DNA of 64,000 nt. Origin: Caldilineaceae bacterium (GTDB taxonomy: Bacteria; Chloroflexota; Anaerolineae; Caldilineales; Caldilineaceae). The stretch covers positions 3,680,290-3,744,289 of the forward strand of contig CAXXLO010000002.1 in the NCBI GenBank assembly GCA_963664085.2. Direction: 5' to 3'. The translations under genes were made by a program, and so were the position numbers. Below, one piece after another: positions 4,845-42,672 of this stretch. How positions within the stretch are numbered: position 1 is the stretch's first letter; each line of letters begins with the position of its first letter. The notes beneath the pieces were generated by a model. That model was not told the origin of the DNA, did no database searches, and saw nothing but the letters and a program-made list of their open reading frames with translations.

Positions 4845-6257
4845 ATGAGGAGAAAAATCGTGAGAAACTGGGGTCTTGGCCGCGGGAAATGGGTGTTTGT
4901 CGACTGGATTGGCGTGGAACCGGGCTACGGTACGGAGTGGGGCGGCGCAGTTAGCGAGGGCTGGAGCGTTCCACATGGGATAACGCTCAAAGTCCACGAG
5001 CCCACGGTAGATCCCTCGCCGGTGATCGTTGCCGACCGGCCCTGGGAGCAGGGCTATATATCTCCGTACTCGACGTTTCTTGAGGATGGAGGGACGCTCC
5101 GGTGCTGGTACGAAAACGGCGGCGGAATCGGCTATGCCGAGTCGCACGACGGCGTCGAATGGGAGAAACCGAACCTGGGCCTTCAGGCGTGGAACGGGTC
5201 GACCGACAACAACCTGATCGACATTAACCGTCACGGCCACGGCATCTTTATCGATCCCGCATCCGCCCCGTCCGAACGGTACAAAATGGTCAGCTGCCAC
5301 TGGACCGAGACCGAGCGTAAGGTCCTTGGCGCCATTTCCGCGGACGGCCTGCACTGGACGCCCATGGTCATGCCTATTATGGAGTATCAGCATGCCGACA
5401 CCCAGAACATTGGCCACTACGATGTGGAAAGGGCCGAATATATACTCTACACCCGCCAGATGGATGGGAAGTCGAACCGCCGCGGCGTCAACCCTGTGGC
5501 AACGGACAGCTTTCGGCGCTTTGAAAAGTCCGTACCGGTCTTGGAGAACAGTCCACTGGACGCGCCGGACGTGGATATCTACTGCAACGGCTACTCCCCC
5601 TGGCCCGGCGCAACGGACGCGCATCTGATGCGGCTCTCCATGTACGAGCGCACGCCCGACACGATGAACGTCCATCTGGCCACCAGCCGCGACGGCATCG
5701 CCTGGCACAGGCCCCAGGGCCGTAACGCCTGGATCGAAACGGTGCCATCCGCCCAGGGAGCATACAAGACGGTCTATGCCTGCGCCGGGGTTGTGCCGAC
5801 GGGCGCGGGGGAGTGGTCCACGTACGTTGGCGTGAACCGGATGTTGCACAACGAACCGGTGGAACGGAGGACGGGCGCGCCGGGCGAGTCGGGGCTGGTA
5901 CGCGCGGCGGTGCGCGAGGACGGGTTCGTCTCGGTTTCCAGCCGGGGGCGCGGCGGCTTCTGGACGGTTCCTTTCGAGCTGAACTCGGATTCGATCGGCA
6001 TCAATGCGGATACCCTTTATTCCGGCTTCCTGCGCTGCCAGATCCTGTCCTCCAGTCCCGGAGACGTCGGCAGCGACACTCGGTTCATCCACACCATCGA
6101 GGGCTACACGCTTGAAGAGTGCCAGCCGATAGTCGGGAATCAGATTGACGCTCCTCTAACGTGGAACGGAAGCGCCGACTTGAGCCAACTGCGGGGCCAG
6201 ACAGTCCGCCTCAGGTTTGACTTGTACAAGGCTGATCTGTACGCAATAAAGTTCTAA
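4845..6257 (+). CDS. Beta-propeller glycoside-hydrolase-like protein, paralogue 1 (function unknown)
   Basis: 470 aa. It has a blade motif GYAESHDGVEWEKPNLG and a C-terminal beta-sandwich-like tail (EDGFVSVSS...LRFDLYKADLYAIKF) shared with 7424, 12791 and 43206. Confidence 0.75.
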   Translation: MRRKIVRNWGLGRGKWVFVDWIGVEPGYGTEWGGAVSEGWSVPHGITLKVHEPTVDPSPVIVADRPWEQGYISPYSTFLEDGGTLRCWYENGGGIGYAESHDGVEWEKPNLGLQAWNGSTDNNLIDINRHGHGIFIDPASAPSERYKMVSCHWTETERKVLGAISADGLHWTPMVMPIMEYQHADTQNIGHYDVERAEYILYTRQMDGKSNRRGVNPVATDSFRRFEKSVPVLENSPLDAPDVDIYCNGYSPWPGATDAHLMRLSMYERTPDTMNVHLATSRDGIAWHRPQGRNAWIETVPSAQGAYKTVYACAGVVPTGAGEWSTYVGVNRMLHNEPVERRTGAPGESGLVRAAVREDGFVSVSSRGRGGFWTVPFELNSDSIGINADTLYSGFLRCQILSSSPGDVGSDTRFIHTIEGYTLEECQPIVGNQIDAPLTWNGSADLSQLRGQTVRLRFDLYKADLYAIKF

Positions 6258-6289
6258 CTGCCAGACAAATCGATCTGCCAGACAAATCG
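6258..6289. repeat. Two direct copies of CTGCCAGACAAATCG (17-bp period)
   Basis: Copies at 6258..6272 and 6275..6289, directly after the stop codon at 6255..6257. Confidence 0.8.
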
Positions 6290-6407
6290 CTGAGCGGAGC
6301 GGGGGACGGAAGCAAGCGTTCCTTCATGCACCCGCGGGACATGCTTGACCCTCAATCCCAGATTGTATACACTTCCGTGGAAAGACTGTGGACCAGCACT
6401 TTGACAA

Positions 6408-6455
6408 TGAAAACAAAGTGACACTGAAAACAGAGTGACGCTGAAAACAAAGTGA
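6408..6455. repeat. Three tandem 17-bp units with core TGAAAACARAGTGA, just upstream of a PhyH gene
   Basis: Cores at 6408..6421, 6425..6438 and 6442..6455. The array ends 14 nt before ATG 6470. Confidence 0.8.
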
Positions 6456-6469
6456 GGGACTGAACGACC

Positions 6470-7372
6470 ATGCGATCAATGACCGTTGCAGACGGGACGA
6501 AGGTCACGATGTCGGGGCACGAGCTTGTTTTTGGCGAGAATATTTTTGCGCCGCGTGACGCGAACGACATCGCAGGGGACATGGCGGCGCTGCGCGCCAG
6601 GATCGAGGAGGACGGCTACCTGTTGATTCGCGATTTTTACGACCGCGATGCAGTTATGGCCGCCCGCGCAGACATTCTCTCCTATCTGGCTGAGGAGGGC
6701 TGCCTGGATCCGGAGGCACCACCTGAAGAGGGTGTAATTGGTCCCGGAAACGAAGGCGCGGCGCTGCGCCACGAGGTTGTCGTCAACATGCACGCGTACC
6801 TGCGGGTGGTCAATTCGGAGCGGGTCATGGCATTCTTCGAGGCGTTTCTCGGCGGCCCGACTTTGACACTGGACCACAAGTGGCCGCGGGCGGTGAGGCG
6901 GGCCCACAGCACGGGCGCACACTACGACGTCGTGTTCATGGGCGCAGGCACAAAGGCGCTATACACGGTGTGGACGCCCCTGGACGATCTGTCACTCGAA
7001 ATGGGACCGCTGGCCTTCTGCCCGGGGTCCAACAAGCTGGACGTCCTGCGCCGCACTTACGGGACCGCCGACGCCCACAATGACGTGACCGACGGCCACC
7101 TCAGCCGCAACCCCCTTGAGCTGATCGAGAAGTTCGGTGTCAAGTGGTCGTCGACGCCGTTTGGCGCGGGCGACGTCATTATCTTCGGCATGTACTTTCT
7201 GCACGGCTCCCTCGACAACGTCTCCAACCGCTACCGACTCAGCACGGACAACCGCTACCAGCTGGCCTCCGAACCGGTCGACGAACGCCACATGGGACAA
7301 CATCCCGACCAGATTCCCAAGGCCGAAAACCGCAAGACCATGGCCGAGATGCGCGAAAAGTGGGGAATTTGA
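6470..7372 (+). CDS. Phytanoyl-CoA dioxygenase (PhyH) family Fe(II)/2-oxoglutarate oxygenase
   Basis: 300 aa. It has an HxD motif (STGAHYDVVF), YTVWTPLDD, GPLAFCPGS and a distal His (FLHGS). Confidence 0.8.
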   Translation: MRSMTVADGTKVTMSGHELVFGENIFAPRDANDIAGDMAALRARIEEDGYLLIRDFYDRDAVMAARADILSYLAEEGCLDPEAPPEEGVIGPGNEGAALRHEVVVNMHAYLRVVNSERVMAFFEAFLGGPTLTLDHKWPRAVRRAHSTGAHYDVVFMGAGTKALYTVWTPLDDLSLEMGPLAFCPGSNKLDVLRRTYGTADAHNDVTDGHLSRNPLELIEKFGVKWSSTPFGAGDVIIFGMYFLHGSLDNVSNRYRLSTDNRYQLASEPVDERHMGQHPDQIPKAENRKTMAEMREKWGI

Positions 7373-7423: not shown

Positions 7424-9067
7424 ATGACCGTTCCCGAGCCCAAGAGCCGCAGCGAGCAACGCGACATTCAACAGAAGACCGACGCCATCTTGCGCGGCGA
7501 GCGGCCCGTCGACAGGGACTACCCCTACATTCCCCCCGACTACGAGGTCCCGTTCCCGCACATCGGGACCGACAGACAGCTGTTTCTGGACAATTTCATT
7601 CTCGATCATCTTGACGGCGTCAAGAGGGAGCTGTGCGCGCCGCAGAAGGCACCCGAACCACTGCTCTCCTTTACGGACCTTCCATGGGAGCAGGTACAGT
7701 TCAACCCGGGCACGGCCGGCGTGGTCCACGATCCCGACGACGGGCTGTTCAAAATGTGGTACTGGCAGGGCCTGGCCGGCGAACCTTTCAACACCAGCCA
7801 GGTGCTCTGCTACGCTGAATCAAAGGACGCCCTCCACTGGGAGAAACCGCTGCGGGATGACTGTATCCCTTTTCAGGGCCATACCGCCACCAACATCGTA
7901 CACCCGGACGTCTCCCAGTCCGGGCTGGCACTGAACCACGACCGCAGCGACAGCGAGCGAAAGTACCTGCTCGTGAACTGGCCGCCGAAAACGGCAGCCA
8001 AGCGACCGCCCGGCAGCCCGCGCCTCTCCAGCGTCGACGCCTCGCCCGACGGCATTCACTGGCAGACGATCAGCGAAGAGAGCCGCCTGCCCCATCACCA
8101 CGAGCAGAAGATAATCTGGGACGAAGGCATACAGCGCTATATAGGCTACAGCCAGTACTCCCACCACCAGGATTTCCTGTACCGCAAACGTCAGATTGGC
8201 CGCCAGGAGAGCGCCGACTTCATCAACTGGTCGCCCAAGGAGGTGGTCCTGTCGGCAGACTGGGACGCCAAACTTCCGCCCGACATGGAGATGCACGACA
8301 TGTCTGTGCGCAAGGTCGGGGGCCTGTACATCGGCATAACGTCAGAGTTCCTGGCAGAACCGTTCTGGCAGGAACGGGAGGGCCGCAACTGGCGCGATCA
8401 GGCGTTCGCCCGGCTCGGCCTCTACACGAGCCGCGACGGCAGACGCTGGCAGCGCGCCGGCGGCCCCGGCCCCTGGGTGGATACCGGCGCGCCGGGCGAA
8501 CAGGACTACGGCTTCGCCTGCTTCACACCGGCCGGCGAGCTGGTCCACAACGGCAAGCTGGTCATCCCCTACAGCGCCAATCCCCAGAAGCAGAGCTGGC
8601 TGCAACAGGGACCGCCCACTCCACTCTATCCGCAAGAGGCGTACAGGCTTCAGCAGGAGGCATGGCACGCCCGCGAGGCGCTGCAGGACGGTCCCATTCC
8701 CAAACGAGCCGTGGGCGGACTGATCCTGCGCGAGGACGGCTGGGCAAAGCTCACCCCGGACTATGAGAGCGGCCAGGTCTACACCAAGCAGTTCGTCTTT
8801 GAAGGGGATGCGCTGCGCGTGAACGCCGACTGCAGCTACGGTTACGTGCGGGTCGAACTCCTCGACCCAACGTTCGCCCCCTACGAAGGTTTCTCAGCCG
8901 AGCTGTGCGACGCGCTCACCGGCGCGGCGGACGAAATCTGGCACACGGTCAGCTGGCAAGGCAAGAGCGATCTGCGCGCCCTGTGGAACAGGCCGGTACG
9001 CATCCGCTTCACCCTGCGTGAAGCCAGCATTTACGCTTTTCAGTTTTTCGAATCCATGTCAGAATGA
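7424..9067 (+). CDS. Beta-propeller glycoside-hydrolase-like protein, paralogue 2
   Basis: 547 aa. Motifs YPYIPPDYEVPFPHIGTDRQLFLDNFILD, CYAESKDALHWEKPL, GRQESADFINWSPK and FVFEGDALRVNADCSYGYVRVELLD are closely parallel to 12791..14506. Confidence 0.8.
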   Translation: MTVPEPKSRSEQRDIQQKTDAILRGERPVDRDYPYIPPDYEVPFPHIGTDRQLFLDNFILDHLDGVKRELCAPQKAPEPLLSFTDLPWEQVQFNPGTAGVVHDPDDGLFKMWYWQGLAGEPFNTSQVLCYAESKDALHWEKPLRDDCIPFQGHTATNIVHPDVSQSGLALNHDRSDSERKYLLVNWPPKTAAKRPPGSPRLSSVDASPDGIHWQTISEESRLPHHHEQKIIWDEGIQRYIGYSQYSHHQDFLYRKRQIGRQESADFINWSPKEVVLSADWDAKLPPDMEMHDMSVRKVGGLYIGITSEFLAEPFWQEREGRNWRDQAFARLGLYTSRDGRRWQRAGGPGPWVDTGAPGEQDYGFACFTPAGELVHNGKLVIPYSANPQKQSWLQQGPPTPLYPQEAYRLQQEAWHAREALQDGPIPKRAVGGLILREDGWAKLTPDYESGQVYTKQFVFEGDALRVNADCSYGYVRVELLDPTFAPYEGFSAELCDALTGAADEIWHTVSWQGKSDLRALWNRPVRIRFTLREASIYAFQFFESMSE

Positions 9068-9113
9068 CGGCAGACCAGCAATTATGTCCTGAAAGAACAG
9101 AAAGGAGCCGAAG

Positions 9114-10757
9114 ATGGGAACAGATCTGAAGGTCCACAATCCGATGGGCTACCCGCCGCAGATCGATCAGAAGCACCTGGCCCCGCGCGTCAGCGACCTG
9201 GCCGGCAAGACGGTGTATCTCGTCGACTGCCGCTTTGACGACGGCGACATCCTGGTCGAGCAGATGGCCAACTGGTTCCGCGACAACCGGCCCGACATCA
9301 ACGTCGAGGTGCGGCGCAAGTCGGGCGTCTATACTGAACGGGACGAGAATCTCTACAAGGAGATCCAGCAGAAAGGAGCGGGGGCGGTCATGGCCGTCGG
9401 CCATTGAAGTACCTGCGCGCCGGCGGTCGCCGACCAATGCATTATTCTGGAAACCGAGTACAACGTTCCGACAGCCTCCATCCAGACGGGGATATTCCTG
9501 GACCTGGTGAAGGCCTCCACGCTTCAGCAGGGCATTCCTTATTTGCGGCACGCGTTTGTGCCGCAGCCGGTGATGGGCCGGTCGCCGGCCCAATTGAGAG
9601 CGTACGTCGACGGTCCTGACGACATAACGGGCCGTCCCTTCATGGGCGAAGTTATCGCCGCGCTGACCCGGCCGCGGACGGGCGACGAGACCCGCAGCCA
9701 CGACTTCGACCGCTCGACACCGCGTTTCGTCGAGCCGGACACGGAGGAGAACCTGAACCGGCTCTTCGCCGAGAATCTCTGGACCGACATGCTGCCGATC
9801 ATCCTCCCCACCGAGGCGCGCGTCGCCGCGATGTTGGAGGGCACGAGCCGCAGCCCCGACACGGTGGTAGGCCGGATGCGCCCGACGGGAACCCGCGAGG
9901 CCTGGGAGTACACGGTGGAAAAGGTGGCGGTCAACGCGGTGATGGCCGGCGCCAAACCGGAGTACCTGCCGGTCATTCTGGCGCTGGCGGCCACAGGCGC
10001 CTCGGCGCGGGCCAGCACGACCAGCTCCGCCGCCGCGATGGCAGTCGTCAACGGTCCCGTCCGGCATGAGATCGAGATGAATTGGGGCATCGGCGCGATG
10101 GGACCCTACAACCACGCCAACGCCACAATCGGCCGCGCCTTCGGTCTGCTCTCGCAGAACCTGCAGGGCGGCTCGGTACCCAAAGAGACCTATCTCGGCT
10201 CCCAGGGCAACAATTACGCGTACAACAGCGTGACCTTCGCGGAAAACGAGGAACGCAGCCCGTGGGTACCGTTCCACGTCCAGCATGGATTCGAGGCCGA
10301 CCAGAGCGCGGTCAGCGTTTTCGGTGGCTGCCGTTCGACGGCCTTCAATCTCGGCCTGCGGGCGAAGCACTGGGAGGATCATGTACGCAACATGCTGCGG
10401 GGCCTCAACCCGCATAACCCGCCCACCTTCGTGCTCGATCCAATCACCGCGCAGCAGTTCATCGATCGCGGCGGCTTCGATACCAAGGAGAAGCTGATCC
10501 AGTGGGTATACGAAAATGCCACCATGCCGGCCGGCGTCTACTGGGACTACCAGCTGATCGAGAATTACGTTTACCCGCACGCGCTCAACGGCGTCGAGCC
10601 CTACGCCACCAAGCTCCAGGCCGCGAGCGATGAGTTGATCCCCATTTACAAGCCTGACGAGATCCACGTCGTGGTCGTCGGGGGGGAGACCAACGGCTAC
10701 TGGCGGATCATGGGCTGCAACTATGCGGGCACAGCTTCGGTCGACGACTGGCGTTGA
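9114..10757 (+). CDS. Candidate selenoprotein: UGSC-like UxxC N-domain fused to a ~400-aa domain of unknown function (in-frame TGA at 9405..9407 read as Sec)
   Basis: ORFs 9114..9407 and 9507..10757 share one frame with no other stop between them. Read-through gives ..AVMAVGH-U-STCAPAVADQCIILETEYNVPTASIQ... AAAGGAG sits before ATG 9114 and there is no SD before GTG 9507. A SECIS-like hairpin lies just downstream of the TGA. Confidence 0.55.
9414..9441 (+). promoter_or_regulatory. Candidate bacterial SECIS hairpin
   Basis: The apical stem-loop is CGGC-GGUC-GCCG (9421..9432) and the lower stem pairs 9414-9417 with 9438-9441. The GGUC loop is 21-24 nt from the U of UGA, compared with 22-25 in E. 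coli fdhF (recalled from memory). Confidence 0.4.
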
Positions 10758-11013: not shown

Positions 11014-11814
11014 ATGGAAGAGATTACTCAACTGCGGCTGGAGGGGTACTGCCTGGTGAAAGGCGTCATTCCGCAGGAGGAGGTTGGCCGGATCCGCCTG
11101 GACGTCGACGGCGCCAGGAGCGCGGGCATGGAGGCCTACGAGAAACTGGACTGGTCGGCGGTTACCCATATGCAGTCGCTGGCGCCCTATTTCGCCGAGC
11201 CGCGTATACTACAGGTCGCGCGCACGGCGTTCAATCATGCCAAGGTGCGCATCTCGCAGACCGAGTTCAAGAGCGTACCGCCGCGGAGCAACCCGCCTGA
11301 ATGGCGTAACTTTCACTCCGACTGGCCGCACGACCTGACCGATCGCTCCTACTGCGGCCTGGTAAACCAGCCTTTCCCCGACATGGTGATGAGTCTCACA
11401 TCGATCTGGATGCTTTCGCCGTTCACCCCGGAAAACGGCGCCACCTGGGTGGTGCCCCGCACGCATCGCGACCCGCGCAATCCGAGGGGCGAGGGGGACG
11501 GCATCGACGGCTTCAGCCCGATTCCCCACGAAGAGCAGGTCTGCGGCGACGCCGGAGACGTTCTGCTCATCGACAGCCGGGTCTGGCACTCGGTCGGCCC
11601 GAATCAGACCGATGAGATCAGGTCCTGCGTGGTGGCCCGCTACTCTCCGTGGTGGCTGAGCGTGGAGTACGGAAAGCGCAACTGCGCGTTCGTGCCCGCC
11701 CACATTTTTGATTCGTTTCCGGCGGGTGTGCAGGATCTTTATGCGCACCGGCGGGTCAAGAACGAGCCGCTCGCAATCGGAGAACCGTGTCAGCAGCAGT
11801 ATGCAGAGAGGTGA
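11014..11814 (+). CDS. PhyH family dioxygenase
   Basis: 266 aa. It has HxD (NFHSDWPHD), VVPRTHRDP and VWHSVGPN, with GGAGGAGG before the ATG. It is paralogous to 25407..26219 (EITQLRLEGYCLVKGVIP versus EQLLHLKLDGWCVVRNVIP). Confidence 0.8.
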   Translation: MEEITQLRLEGYCLVKGVIPQEEVGRIRLDVDGARSAGMEAYEKLDWSAVTHMQSLAPYFAEPRILQVARTAFNHAKVRISQTEFKSVPPRSNPPEWRNFHSDWPHDLTDRSYCGLVNQPFPDMVMSLTSIWMLSPFTPENGATWVVPRTHRDPRNPRGEGDGIDGFSPIPHEEQVCGDAGDVLLIDSRVWHSVGPNQTDEIRSCVVARYSPWWLSVEYGKRNCAFVPAHIFDSFPAGVQDLYAHRRVKNEPLAIGEPCQQQYAER

Positions 11815-12790: not shown

Positions 12791-14506
12791 ATGACCAGTC
12801 AACAGCAGGTCGAGACGCCCGAAGCAAGGTGCGACTCGGAAATGGTCGACGTGCAGCGCAGGATGGACGAGACCTGGGCAGGCGACAGAGCGGTGGATTC
12901 CAGCACTTACCCCTATTTCAACCCCGACTACCGCCTGCCGTTCAAGCACATCGGCCTGCAAAAGCAGCTCTTCCTCGACAACTACATTCTTGACGACCTG
13001 ATCGACAGCGAACGAATCATCCCGCCCCCGCAAAAGGCCGAACCGCCGCTGATCGAGTTCGAGAACCTGCCCTGGGAGCGCTATCATTTTACCAGTGTTC
13101 CCGCAGCCGCGCTGTACGATCCCGATGACCGCCTTTTCAAGATGTGGTTCAAGACGCTGGTCAGCGGAAACACGAACACAGCTCAAGGCACAGAGGTTGT
13201 ACTCTGCTACGCCGAATCGGAAGACGCCATGTACTGGCGGAAACCGTTGCGGGAAGAGTTCCAGCCATTTGAAGACAGCAAGAAGACAAATATCGTGGTG
13301 CGAGACTTCGACAACGGCGCCATCGTCCTCAACCCGGACCGCAGCGACCCGGAGAGGAAGTTCCTGGCCGTCTACAATCCGTCAATGGAGGCCAGCAGGC
13401 GGGGCCAGCGGGTCATGTCGCGCGTGGCCGCGTCGCCGGACGGCATAAACTGGCAGGTAATCAGCGACGATTCGCCTTTTCGACACCACCACCAGATGCG
13501 GGTCATTTGGGACGACGCCTACAGCAAGTGGGTCGGCTACTCACAGGCGTCGCACGCCTTCGCCAGCCATCTCCATGTCCGCACCATTGGGCGCCAGGAG
13601 AGCGCCGATTTCATCAACTGGTCGCCCAAACAGATCATCCTTTCAAGCGACTGGGACCCCAGCGTCGGCCCCAATGTCGAGTTTCACACGATGTCGGCGC
13701 GCAAGGAAGGCGGCCTCTACATCGGCATCGTCGAGGAGGCGCACGGTGAACACCAGTGGCTGGTCAACCGCGACGGCAGCAACCAGCGCGATCAGTTCCA
13801 CACCAAGGCCGCGCTCTACGCGAGCCGCGACGGCTGCCGCTTCCAGCGCGCGGACGGCTACCGCCCCTGGGCCGACAACGGCCCGCCCGGCAGCCAGTAC
13901 TACGGCTACTTCTGTCACACGGTTGCCGGATACCTCCTTCACCAGGGCAAAATGGTGATCCCCTGTTCGGCCTTCCCGCACAAACAGCGTGACACAAGAC
14001 CCGCCGGCGTGTCCAATCACGCGCCGCTGTCTGCGGCCTCAGCCTCCCGCCGCCACATCGAGGCGCTGACCCGCCACGGATTCGGCAGCCCGATGATGGA
14101 CCACGTGCGCCCTGACCTGCCCATTCAGAGGAGCATCGGGGCCCTCGTGCTGCGGGAGGACGGCTGGGCCGCGCTCCGTCCCAAATACGAGGCCGGCCAG
14201 GTCATCACAAAGCAGTTCGTGTTCGAGGGCAATGCGCTGCGCGTCAACGCCGACTGCGGCTACGGGCTGATACGGGTGGCGTTGCTCGACTCCGAGCTGA
14301 AACCGTTTCCCGGCTTCAGCCTGGAGGATTGCTTACCGATTCACGCGCCCTCCCAGCAGATATGGCACCAGGTTGCCTGGAAAGACGCGCCCGACTTCCG
14401 CCGCTTGTGGAACAAGCCGGTGCGCATCTGCTTCTCTCTGCTGGAGTGCAGCCTCTACGGGTTCCAGTTTCATTACCGACCTGAAAGAGAAGAGGGAGGA
14501 AGCTAA
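12791..14506 (+). CDS. Beta-propeller glycoside-hydrolase-like protein, paralogue 3
   Basis: 571 aa. Motifs are YPYFNPDYRLPFKHIGLQKQLFLDNYILD, CYAESEDAMYWRKPL, GRQESADFINWSPK and FVFEGNALRVNADCGYGLIRVALLD. Confidence 0.8.
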   Translation: MTSQQQVETPEARCDSEMVDVQRRMDETWAGDRAVDSSTYPYFNPDYRLPFKHIGLQKQLFLDNYILDDLIDSERIIPPPQKAEPPLIEFENLPWERYHFTSVPAAALYDPDDRLFKMWFKTLVSGNTNTAQGTEVVLCYAESEDAMYWRKPLREEFQPFEDSKKTNIVVRDFDNGAIVLNPDRSDPERKFLAVYNPSMEASRRGQRVMSRVAASPDGINWQVISDDSPFRHHHQMRVIWDDAYSKWVGYSQASHAFASHLHVRTIGRQESADFINWSPKQIILSSDWDPSVGPNVEFHTMSARKEGGLYIGIVEEAHGEHQWLVNRDGSNQRDQFHTKAALYASRDGCRFQRADGYRPWADNGPPGSQYYGYFCHTVAGYLLHQGKMVIPCSAFPHKQRDTRPAGVSNHAPLSAASASRRHIEALTRHGFGSPMMDHVRPDLPIQRSIGALVLREDGWAALRPKYEAGQVITKQFVFEGNALRVNADCGYGLIRVALLDSELKPFPGFSLEDCLPIHAPSQQIWHQVAWKDAPDFRRLWNKPVRICFSLLECSLYGFQFHYRPEREEGGS

Positions 14507-26627: not shown

Positions 26628-27534
26628 TCACGTCACCTTTTTGCCTTCAGATAGCTCCTCAAGTTTACTCCTATACTCTCTGAGCCTGTCGAGTAGCTCC
26701 GGGAGGCGTTCTTGCGGGTCTTGGTCGCAGCGGACCAATTCGCCGCTCTCGTTTCTGACTTTCAGTTGGAGCGGGACTTTGGTAAAGGGCTGGCCGGTCA
26801 GGGGGTCTACGGGTGTTTCGGGGCCGTGCGCCAGAGCGGTGAGCATGTCTTGGACATCGAGTTCGTGCATATTCAATATGTGGATGTTGTGGGAAGAGTC
26901 GAGAGCGCCGTGCGCGCCAGGGTTATGGTGGGCTATCAGACTTTCCACGTCAGTCAGCATCTTTTGCGTGAGGTAGAGGTCGTAGAAGCCGAAGCGGAGG
27001 CGGCCCCTGTCGTTGAGGACGACATCGGGTGGATCGTCCGGGTTGTCGGATGCTTTGAATTCGGCGTAGCCCTGTTCGACGAGGGCTTCACTGGAGAAGC
27101 GGTCGAGGCGGGCGTTGATGTCGGCGGCAGCTTCGAGGACGTCGAGGTCGGGGTGCGCGCTGGCGATGTCGGCGGCGGCGGCCTGAATTTCTTCGGCGCG
27201 GATGAGCTCCATTTCCTCGTCGGCGCGGCGGCGGATGTTGATCAGGGTTTGTGCGCTGCGGCTGATGGCGTTGCAGATGGCGGGCGTGGGCTCCTGTTGG
27301 GCCAACTGGTCCATGCTGTCCTGCACGATGTCGAGGGCATGTTTGAGCTGTTCGGGCATGCGGTTGTCGCGGCGGACGGCGGTGGCGGAGTTTTTGCCGC
27401 CGCGGGAACGCCATTCGCGGGGCCTGTTCGGGCGGGGCGCCGTGCGCGAGGCAGAGGCCGCCGTACTGTTCGAGGCCGTTGGCCTGGCAGGGCTGGCCGT
27501 CTTTTCTGATTCCTGTGCAGCGCATTGCGGACAT
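26628..27534 (-). CDS. Hypothetical protein with a Cys-rich N-terminus; the reading frame is apparently disrupted (frameshift or sequencing error)
   Basis: ATG 27534 has a strong SD (AAGGAG 9 nt upstream) and encodes MSAMRCTGIRKDGQPCQANGLEQYGGLCLAHG. The long ORF 26628..27359 is in another frame, has no SD, and stays open back to 27534. Confidence 0.5.
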
Positions 27535-39873: not shown

Positions 39874-42672
39874 ATGTCTCAAGCAACCATAGACCGCCTC
39901 ATCATCAACTCGCCCTACGACGAACCGACGCAGCATTGGCGCTACACCCGTGAGAGCAGATCCTTCTCGCTGGCGGAAGGCCGGCGGTCCGCCGGCTACG
40001 TGATGGCCTCCGGCGATTCCCAGGCGTTCGATGATCCAGGTGAGTTCGTAGAGATTCCTCTGGTCAACCAGATTAGGCCGCGCGTCAAAGCCTGGCGCGA
40101 GGCCGGCTATCCGGGCGTGACCGGCATCACGCGGCGCCTGCTGGAGCATTGGACAGATGAGGAGGAGTTTGAATCGCGTCGTTTCTTCTTTTGCCAGTTG
40201 GAAGCCGCAGAGACGCTCATCTGGCTTCGCGAAGCGCCGGACGCTGACAAAGTAGGGATCATTGTACCTGATGATGGCGGGTCGTTCGAACGGCTCTGCG
40301 CCAAGATGGCGACCGGTTCCGGCAAGACCGTTGTCATGGCCATGCTCATCGCTTGGCACATCCTTAACAAGACTACCTATCCCCAGGACACCCGGTTCTC
40401 CAAAAACGTACTTGTCATCGCCCCCGGCCTTACGGTCAGGAACCGCCTGGCCGTCCTTGAGCCGTCCCATGCAGAAAACTACTACGAGGCATTTCGCATT
40501 GTTCCCTCGCACATGCTTGACAAGCTCCGCCAGGGTCGCGTTATTGTCCGCAACTGGCATGCGCTCAACTGGGAGACGGAAGAGAAGATCGCGTCCAAGC
40601 GCAGCGTAGACAAGCGCGGCGCCAAGAGCGACGAGGCCTATGTCCGTGAAGTCCTGGGCGAAATGGCGAATGCCCGCAGCGTCCTGGTCATCAACGACGA
40701 GGCCCACCACGCGTGGCGCGTGCCCCCTGATTCCAAAGTCAGAGGTGTCGCCAAGTCGGAACGGGAGCAGGCCACCAAGTGGATAGGCGGCCTGGACCGG
40801 ATAAACAGGGCGCGCGGCCTGTTGACCTGCTACGACTTCTCCGCAACCCCCTTTGCGCCGACCGGCAGGAGAAGCACCGAGGATACGCTGTACGAATGGA
40901 TCGTGAGCGATTTCGGACTGAACGATGCAATCGAGGCCGGCCTGGTCAAGACCCCCCGCGTAGTCGTGCGCGATGACGCTGTGCCCGAAGCCAGGGAATA
41001 CAAGTCCCGTCTCTACCACATCTACAACGATCCCGAAGTCAAGGACGATCTGAATCGGAAAGCATAGCCCCACGAGCCGCTGCCCGATCTCGTCCTCAAT
41101 GGCTACTACCTCCTCGGTTACGATTGGCGGGAGGCCGCGAAAGACTGGAAGGAGGCCGGTTTCAGCACGCCTCCCGTGATGATCACCGTCGCCAACCGCA
41201 CCGAGACCGCGGCCCGGGTCAAGAACGCATTTGACCGCGGGCGGGTACTCATCGAGCAACTCTGCGACCCGGCGCGAACGTTGCACATTGATTCAAAGGT
41301 GTTGGACAAGGCGGAGACAACAGAGGAGCCGATTGCCGCAATCGAACCGACCGGCCAGCCTGATGGCAGAGAACGCAGGCTTACAAAGGATCAGCAAGCC
41401 GAATGGCTGCGCTTGCAGGTAGATACCGTAGGCCAAACGGGCAAACCCGGCGAGCAGATCCAGAACGTGATCTCGGTCGGCATGCTTTCCGAAGGCTGGG
41501 ACGCCAAGACCGTAACGCACATCATGGGGCTGCGCGCCTTCAGCAGCCAGCTTCTCTGCGAGCAGGTGGTCGGGCGCGGTCTCCGCCGCACCTCCTACGA
41601 CATAAACCCGGCAACCGGCATGTTCGAGCCGGAATACGTCAACATTTTCGGTGTGCCCTTTACCTTCCTGCCGCATGAATCTCACGAAGACACGATTCCG
41701 AAGCCGCCCAAACCAAAGACTGAAATCGAGCCGGTTGCCGCAAAAGCAGAATACGAGATAAGCTGGCCCAATGTGATCCGCATCGAACATCTTTACAGCC
41801 CGCGTCTGTCTCTGGACTGGGACAGTGTACAGCTCTTGGAACTGAACGCCAGCGAGACAGCGCAAGTAGCCCAACTTGCCCCGATCGTCGAGGGCAAACC
41901 GGACCTGTCCAGCGTCACCGCAATTGACTTGGAAAGGCTGGCGCGTGAATACCGGACGCAGCGGATAATCTTCGAGACGGCGCGTGATGTTTACGATCAG
42001 ATGCAGAGCGATTGGCGCGGCAGCAGGGAGGTTCTGCTGGTCCAAGTCGTGCGCCTGGTCGAGCGTTTCATCCGCTCCGACAAGGTCTACGTCTCCCCCG
42101 CCCTGTACCACCATGACAACTTGAGGCGGAATCTCATAATCACTCTGAACATGACGAAGGTAGTCCAGCACATTTGGGAGGCAATTCGTTTCGAGAACAC
42201 AAGGAAGTCGGAACCGGTTTTTGACCAAGATCGCCCCCTGCGATCGACTGGCGACATGGTGAAATGGTTTACGGGCAAGCCCTGTGAATTCACGGTCCGC
42301 AGCCACATAAACTATTGCGTGTACGACAGCGCCTGGGAGGCGTCCGATGCCTTTCACCTGGACCACAGCTCCGCAGTGGCGGCCTGGGTGAAGAACGATC
42401 ATCTTGGCTTTGAGATTCTCTATATCTATCGGGGCGTCGTGCGCAAATACCGGCCCGATTTCATAATCCGTCTCAAATCGGGCGAAGCGCTCGTATTGGA
42501 AACCAAGGGTCAGGAAACTGAACAAGACCGTACCAAACGCCGCTTTCTTGGGGAGTGGGTGAAAGCCGTAAACGATCATGGCGGATTTGGTCGCTGGCAT
42601 GCTGCCGTGTCAAAAACACCGGACGACATCCAAGACATTCTTGAGAAGTGCTCTGCCAAAGTCAAGATCTAG
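39874..42672 (+). pseudogene. Type III restriction enzyme Res subunit (helicase + PD-(D/E)xK nuclease) with one in-frame TAG
   Basis: ORFs 39874..41067 and 41176..42672 share one frame, and TAG 41065..41067 is the only stop. It has Walker A MATGSGKT, DEAH box VINDEAHHAW, motif VI EQVVGRGLRR and the nuclease motif RPDFIIRL...LVLETKG. Confidence 0.8.

Follow-up and report, generated by a model that had tools for sequence, protein, structure and literature searches.

The locus described here raises the question of whether a TGA codon separates two genes or is read as selenocysteine (Sec) within one. This codon is at positions 9405-9407 of a 64,000-nucleotide (nt) stretch of DNA from a Caldilineaceae bacterium, which we refer to in full as the window. 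Gene callers treat the TGA as a stop and, both here and in hundreds of related assemblies, split the region into two "hypothetical proteins" of 97 and 416 residues. The initial annotation of the window proposed a single selenoprotein with a U-x-x-C motif, in which the UGA is followed by a hairpin resembling the Sec insertion sequence (SECIS) of Escherichia coli fdhF. Based on the comparisons presented below, we consider it very probable that 9114..10757 is one selenoprotein gene in which UGA 9405 is read as Sec. Coordinates of the features are collected in Table 1.

The two open reading frames (ORFs), 9114..9407 and 9507..10757, are in the same frame and no stop codon interrupts the 99 nt that separate them, which both the sequence and its translation confirm. 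Reading through the TGA yields a product of 547 residues with the local sequence ...GAGAVMAVGH-U-STCAPAVADQC... (AVGH-U-STCAPAVADQCIILETEYNVPTASIQTGIFLDLVK around Sec98), and the predicted U-x-x-C motif takes the form U-S-T-C. Inspection of the sequence showed a Shine-Dalgarno sequence ahead of ATG 9114 and none comparable upstream of GTG 9507, in agreement with what had been said of this GTG. We also compared the region with its closest relative (locus L001, 94% identical), which served as the reference for counting substitutions. The 33 codons from the TGA to GTG 9507 contain 10 synonymous and 0 non-synonymous changes, with 0, 0, and 10 differences at the first, second, and third codon positions. 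Because all of these changes are synonymous and in third positions, the gap is translated in this frame. The parts flanking the gap have the same pattern of purifying selection relative to L001 on both sides of the TGA. The gene's own terminator is also a TGA, which has no such hairpin. Since the gene itself terminates at TGA, a general reassignment of UGA in this organism is unlikely.

A database search identified over 7,800 homologues that fall into two length classes. Members of one class are full-length proteins of 545-560 residues that are 60-63% identical to the window protein and align with it end to end. Members of the other are 416-444 residues long, are 73-94% identical, and start at varying points just past the position of the TGA. 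Every full-length homologue that we aligned reads VGH-C-STCAP, with Cys exactly at the TGA codon of the window, and both halves form one polypeptide in all of these Cys forms. We then fetched 82 loci, taking one genome per species; the top match in this genome collection was a locus labelled Caldilineaceae (L003, 88%). The homologous codon is TGA in 67 cases, TGC in 18, and TGT in 2 (counts that include tandem paralogues), so that a Cys or Sec codon is always found here and never one for another residue. The TGA forms occur in Chloroflexota, Latescibacterota, Rokubacteria, Binatia, Delta-, Alpha-, and Gammaproteobacteria, Burkholderiales, Actinomycetes, Acidobacteriota, and Planctomycetales. 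The local motif varies across the family (GH-U-STC, GL-U-STC, GT-U-PGC, and GI-U-STC), and among all 83 members examined there are only two positions where Cys or Sec is conserved, namely U/C98 and C101.

The hairpin behind the UGA provides a second line of evidence. The CGGC-GGUC-GCCG stem-loop described in the initial annotation is present and can be extended to 9414..9441 by a weak lower stem (9414-9417/9438-9441, UGCG/UGCA). Its GGUC loop is indeed one nt nearer the UGA than that of E. coli fdhF, the distances being 17 and 18 nt when fdhF is read from a RefSeq genome. The hexamer ACCAAU, which had been pointed out as a further likeness to fdhF, does occur in both sequences. However, it is confined to the subclade of the window, so this likeness is coincidental. 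Among TGA forms the loop has a fixed place: in each of 59 distinct sequences GGUC is 17 nt past the UGA, at positions 21-24 when the U of UGA is taken as position 1.

Conservation at synonymous sites follows the same element. In 23 Sec forms that share the residues C-A-P-A-V-A, the third-codon positions from +14 to +26 are 91-100% conserved, compared with 50-67% at these positions in 18 Cys forms that encode identical residues and 39-78% for the remaining third positions in the Sec set. When folded, the Cys forms do not form the hairpin. The sequence of the stem differs across clades with pairing kept (CGGC/GCCG, CCCGAC/GUCGGG, CCCCAC/GUGGGG, CCGGA/UCCGG, and CCCAAC/GUUGGG). The stem covariation score in the 59-sequence alignment was 0.297, compared with 0.139 ± 0.016 for shuffled alignments, and double-sided stem changes numbered 54 compared with 23.3 ± 7.3. 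For both measures, 0 of 500 shuffles reached the observed value, and every slid register of the stem gave a lower covariation score. In this alignment pair 19:26 is AU in 27 sequences and GC in 27, pair 18:27 is GC in 52, CG in 6, and AU in 1, and pair 20:25 is CG in 51 and AU in 7. We also built a covariance model from 55 Sec forms, leaving out the window and L001-L003. This model gave a single strong match in the 64 kb, at 9405-9444 on the + strand, with a score of 41.3 bits (E about 1e-10) that is partly due to the conserved U-S-T-C codons. The second-best match, at 39978-40006 (+; 15.1 bits, E about 0.009), covers the hairpin half only and is probably a chance GC-rich hairpin. The hairpin is therefore conserved in orthologues, with a stem that covaries across clades.

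A few of the loci are unusual. Five of them (L041, L043, L047, L063, and L077) contain tandem long-form paralogues, and every copy has an in-frame TGA followed by a GGUC hairpin. Two others, labelled Candidatus Nitrosocosmicus sp. (L020) and Klebsiella pneumoniae metagenome-assembled genome (L067), are Sec forms with a bacterial-type hairpin inside the ORF. The local sequence of L020 matches that of the Rokubacteria loci L010 and L016, and both L020 and L067 look like mis-binned contigs. A scan of the window for other same-frame ORFs split by TGA gave no further convincing selenoprotein gene.

Table 1. Features of the predicted selenoprotein gene, with positions given in the window.
Feature	Position	Strand	Basis or remark
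Shine-Dalgarno sequence AGGAG	9103..9107	+	6 nt upstream of ATG 9114, the true start; sequence inspection
Long-form UGSC-family selenoprotein coding sequence (very probable), 547 codons plus terminal TGA 10755-10757	9114..10757	+	Translation, end-to-end Cys homologues, purifying selection
N-terminal UGSC domain, residues 7-165	9132..9608	+	Pfam PF24696; spans the TGA and holds the redox motif
Predicted UGA selenocysteine codon, residue 98	9405..9407	+	Aligned with invariant Cys in Cys-form homologues
Predicted U-S-T-C redox motif, Sec98 to Cys101	9405..9416	+	Conserved Cys/Sec positions
SECIS-like stem-loop	9414..9441	+	Core stem 9421-9424/9429-9432 (CGGC/GCCG), GGUC loop 9425-9428
C-terminal domain, about 350 residues	9705..10754	+	No Pfam, NCBIfam, or PDB sequence match; AlphaFold2 models

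Several observations count against this explanation of the locus. The window hairpin is the weakest variant in the family, with 4 bp, a broken lower stem, and a folding energy of about -9 kcal/mol. It is also no more stable than shuffled sequence, a fold of equal or greater stability being obtained for 189 of 200 dinucleotide shuffles (z = +1.37). For this reason we rejected single-sequence folding as evidence for the hairpin, which exceeds chance in the comparative analyses (synonymous sites, covariation, and covariance model) and not thermodynamically. The element is invariant in the 23 closest Sec forms, which therefore show no covariation, and more distant clades are needed to see it. Changes in the stem coincide with amino-acid changes, and the covariation is thus not independent of the evolution of the protein. 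No Rfam family, for SECIS elements or otherwise, matched at either gathering or relaxed thresholds. The 64-kb window has no selA, selB, or selD detectable by tblastn with the E. coli proteins, and no tRNA-Sec detectable with Rfam or ARAGORN. It also has no copy, anywhere along its length, of the thioredoxin-reductase-like gene that is the usual partner in this family (see below), and neither do the loci of the closest relatives (L001-L007). Finally, the C-terminal domain yields no functional clue and the reductase mechanism proposed below comes from gene neighbourhood only.

The alternative that gains most from these points is that UGA 9405 is read through without Sec, either because the machinery has been lost and a near-cognate tRNA inserts Cys or Trp, or because the gene is on its way to becoming a Cys form. 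The lack of sel genes and tRNA-Sec in the window fits this, as does the weak hairpin of this clade, and Cys forms are clearly functional elsewhere. Against it, the window clade keeps the hairpin core and the GGUC fixed at synonymous sites although nearby third positions vary, which would be unexpected if recruitment of SelB were no longer needed. The TGA has also been kept in four independent assemblies of this clade, where one change from TGA to TGC or TGT would suffice were Sec dispensable. The fact that the gene ends at a TGA also makes a general reassignment unlikely as a route to read-through. We therefore regard read-through without Sec as unlikely and insertion of Sec in this organism as very likely.

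Still less probable is that the region holds two genes, one encoding a 97-residue protein that ends at TGA 9405 and one encoding a 416-residue protein with GTG 9507 as its start. These are precisely the two genes called automatically in L001 and L002, and many database entries are of the shortened, 416-444-residue form. However, the called start shifts among relatives (416, 425, 430, 436, 441, and 444 residues), as it would if an arbitrary first start were being chosen, and GTG 9507 has no Shine-Dalgarno sequence. The 99-nt gap evolves as coding sequence, the PF24696 match crosses it, and the Cys forms are single polypeptides. That the TGA is a sequencing or assembly error, or marks a pseudogene, is effectively refuted even though it is one base from a Cys codon, because the same TGA is present in independent assemblies from many phyla at no fewer than 67 homologous sites, purifying selection downstream of it is strong, and a dedicated, conserved RNA structure follows the codon in TGA forms only.

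We also examined what kind of protein the gene encodes. The N-terminal part had been thought to resemble UGSC (seleno)proteins, and this is borne out by Pfam PF24696 (UGSC), which matches with 60.6 bits relative to a gathering score of 25, across the TGA. On the NF041046 equivalog model the protein scores 47.5 bits, below the cutoff of 125 bits. Homologues that NCBI names UGSC family (seleno)protein score 49-57 bits on this model and are also below the cutoff. A full-length AlphaFold2 (AF2) model was made on a natural Cys homologue (P0022, 63% identical; predicted local distance difference test score (pLDDT) 86, predicted template modelling score 0.86). In this model the N-terminal domain is built from five beta-alpha units, and the CxxC follows strand 3, where the third helix begins. 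In a thioredoxin fold the CxxC would be at the start of helix 1, and Foldseek matches for the modelled domain are flavodoxin-, PBP-, and SIS-like. The N-terminal domain thus looks flavodoxin-like rather than thioredoxin-like, an assignment that is provisional. Foldseek comparison of the P0022 model with the PDB returned generic alpha/beta matches only, with a template modelling (TM) score of 0.19 or less.

The C-terminal domain, which was unfamiliar to the initial annotator and put at about 400 residues, is about 350 residues long and matches nothing in Pfam, NCBIfam, or the sequences of the PDB. A profile search of the PDB gave an insignificant match to CO dehydrogenase only (E = 0.7). AF2 modelled these residues from the window's own sequence with a pLDDT of 81, and Foldseek found nothing meaningful for this model in the PDB (best probability 0.33, TM about 0.25, root-mean-square deviation 17 Å). 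Invariant Arg, Glu, His, Asp, and Asn residues are abundant in the domain. An exhaustive search placed it in 3,937 clusters at 50% identity. It nearly always follows a UGSC domain, and in the proteins we checked, including those of unusual length, no known domain besides UGSC was fused to it.

The "UGSC-containing protein" has been a recognised predicted prokaryotic selenoprotein family, counted among the abundant ones, since marine metagenome surveys (Zhang & Gladyshev 2008, PMC2398784), where 255 Sec and 21 Cys UGSC sequences were reported from GOS and a thioredoxin-like fold was suggested (PMC2398784). The same study mentions a "UGSC/Unknown_1" fusion (PMC2398784), in which "Unknown_1" may or may not be our C-terminal domain. 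Further mentions of the family are found in PMC5029168, PMC9312934, and PMC13188914, and UAG-recoded versions of UGSC are cited in PMC5330540. NCBI and UniRef already label long-form homologues "UGSC family (seleno)protein". The window protein shares with this family a homologous N-terminal domain, a U-x-x-C motif with Sec first, a mixture of Sec and Cys forms, and a wide environmental distribution. It differs in that the canonical UGSC protein is a single domain of about 150 residues with U-G-S-C, whereas the window protein has U-S-T-C, 547 residues, and an extra domain of 350 residues; some clades of the long-form family have U-P-G-C in place of U-G-S-C. The gene is thus a new, mis-annotated member of the known UGSC family, within a long-form subfamily with U-S-T-C. 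Within this recognised selenoprotein family it is an ordinary member, and it does not found a family of its own.

Three known systems offer points of comparison. As in E. coli fdhF, the UGA in the window is followed closely by a stem-loop that is itself part of the coding sequence and has GGUC in its apical loop. The fdhF element has a longer stem with a bulged U, whereas the window has a 4-bp GC upper stem with mismatches and a stem sequence unrelated to that of fdhF, and binding of SelB is predicted only. A second comparison, with selenoprotein B (GrdB/PrdB), is an analogy between U-x-x-C selenoproteins. The grd operon carries trxB, and in that system attack of the selenol on the substrate leaves an Se-S bond, which is reduced again by an adjacently encoded, NADPH-dependent thioredoxin-reductase system. 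We found no sign of homology between the two, as the window protein has no PF07355 match and, besides UGSC, no Pfam match at E <= 0.1. The conserved neighbours of the long-form UGSC genes also differ in including neither a pyruvoyl-subunit partner nor a separate thioredoxin. PrdB is listed as a UxxC selenoprotein in the metagenome survey (PMC2398784). Third, the TrxB/Trx and AhpF/AhpC pairs resemble many UGSC loci in combining a U/CxxC client with a flavoprotein that matches the thioredoxin-disulfide reductase model over its full length and has CxxC (here CASC). They differ from them in that the UGSC neighbour is below both equivalog cutoffs and hence is a distinct paralogue, and in that the N-terminal domain of the client is modelled as a five-unit beta-alpha sandwich rather than a thioredoxin fold. 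In the window genome there is the further difference that no partner is adjacent within the window.

The flavoprotein neighbour emerged from clustering of all ORFs in the 82 loci. It is a thioredoxin-reductase paralogue of about 312 residues with a CASC motif that is present in 49 of 82 loci, in most cases as a direct neighbour with the same orientation (for instance, 9695-10681 of L085 and 121-1059 of L050). It scores 118 bits for Pyr_redox_2 and 280 bits over the full length of TIGR01292, below the equivalog cutoff of 343 bits. The paralogue is found beside both Sec and Cys forms, the latter including, for example, Bradyrhizobium sp. USDA 3240 (L085). No thioredoxin gene was found among the conserved neighbours of the 82 loci. 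In the papers we examined that use the term UGSC, neither a function nor a flavoprotein partner is described, and this conserved neighbour is what is new here. Other neighbours vary among loci and include TctC/TctA, NMT1/ABC, and MFS transporters, amidohydrolases, MetE-like proteins, a short-chain dehydrogenase/reductase, and an acyl-CoA ligase.

The immediate surroundings of the gene in the window are of another kind. The PhyH and beta-propeller context noted in the initial annotation is present. However, this context (PhyH, Kelch, GFO_IDH_MocA, and HpcH) is common to L001 and in part to L002 and not to the rest of the family, so that it is specific to the clade and is not a family trait, the family neighbour being the thioredoxin-reductase paralogue. 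Genes for PhyH-family dioxygenases bracket the locus at 6470-7372 (+) and 11014-11814 (+), with Pfam scores of 66 and 63 bits, and these are kept in L001 and not in other clades. Two ORFs without a Pfam match, at 7424-9067 (+; 547 residues) and 12791-14506 (+; 571 residues), flank the selenoprotein and PhyH genes and are syntenic in L001. Despite having the same length of 547 residues, the product of 7424-9067 is not a paralogue of the selenoprotein; the two are unrelated (best BLASTP E = 0.68). In L002, the closest relative with a complete contig, a DDE transposase has been inserted at 6030-7037 into an otherwise syntenic neighbourhood, where several flanking genes look fragmented.

The machinery for Sec decoding is encoded close to the gene in a number of relatives. 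In 11 of the loci, at least one of selD, selA, and selB is within about 1.5-7 kb of the UGSC gene, and 6 of these 11 also have a tRNA-Sec with anticodon TCA that adjoins selB. In L068 (10001-17371) and L075 (8700-16104) the order is long-form UGSC gene, selD, thioredoxin-reductase-like gene, selA, selB, and selC (tRNA-Sec), and in L041, L051, L058, and L062 the same cassette genes are nearby in other arrangements. The selenoprotein and the genes for its decoding thus seem to be passed on together, and the long-form UGSC protein is perhaps the main Sec client in those genomes. In the window itself, ARAGORN called a 90-nt "tRNA-Lys(ttt)" at 27358-27447 (+), in a GC-rich, repetitive stretch with no Rfam tRNA match, which is probably a false positive and not a tRNA-Sec.

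These data can be combined into a possible mechanism. A ribosome that arrives at UGA 9405-9407 would meet the in-frame stem-loop, the GGUC loop of which, 17 nt downstream, would recruit SelB with Sec-tRNA(Sec), so that Sec would be inserted without termination. At the terminal TGA 10755, where there is no hairpin, termination would be normal. In the protein, Sec98 and Cys101 would form a selenol/thiol pair where a helix begins in the alpha/beta N-terminal domain. This pair may alternate between a selenenylsulfide and a reduced state and either pass reducing equivalents to, or attack, a substrate bound by the C-terminal domain, which might be small and polar. In most genomes re-reduction could be carried out by the adjacent, dedicated NAD(P)H-dependent thioredoxin-reductase paralogue; in the window genome, which lacks such a neighbour in the stretch analysed, it would presumably depend on a reductase from another part of the genome. 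Gene neighbourhood is what suggests the reductase chemistry and a flow of electrons from the flavoprotein, and we hold the two-component reductase model to be plausible, at a little short of even chances. More tentatively, we propose the fuller picture in which the long-form UGSC protein and the adjacent paralogue are a previously uncharacterised NAD(P)H-driven two-component selenoenzyme, with a 350-residue catalytic domain that has no solved fold relative, and in which, in several Proteobacteria and a Planctomycete, a compact selD-selA-selB-selC cassette has this protein as its resident client.

Once the Sec codon is recognised, the two hypothetical proteins become a single enzyme again. The family to which it belongs is very large, is spread over many phyla of bacteria from soil and water, and consists mostly of proteins that contain Sec. 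Its interest lies in the thioredoxin-reductase partner, in the complete Sec cassette that often travels with the gene, and in a C-terminal domain without a solved relative. The partnership can now be tested biochemically on a Cys form together with the flavoprotein. If the proposal is true, the long-form UGSC protein may be the main reason why the genomes with the cassette keep Sec decoding.

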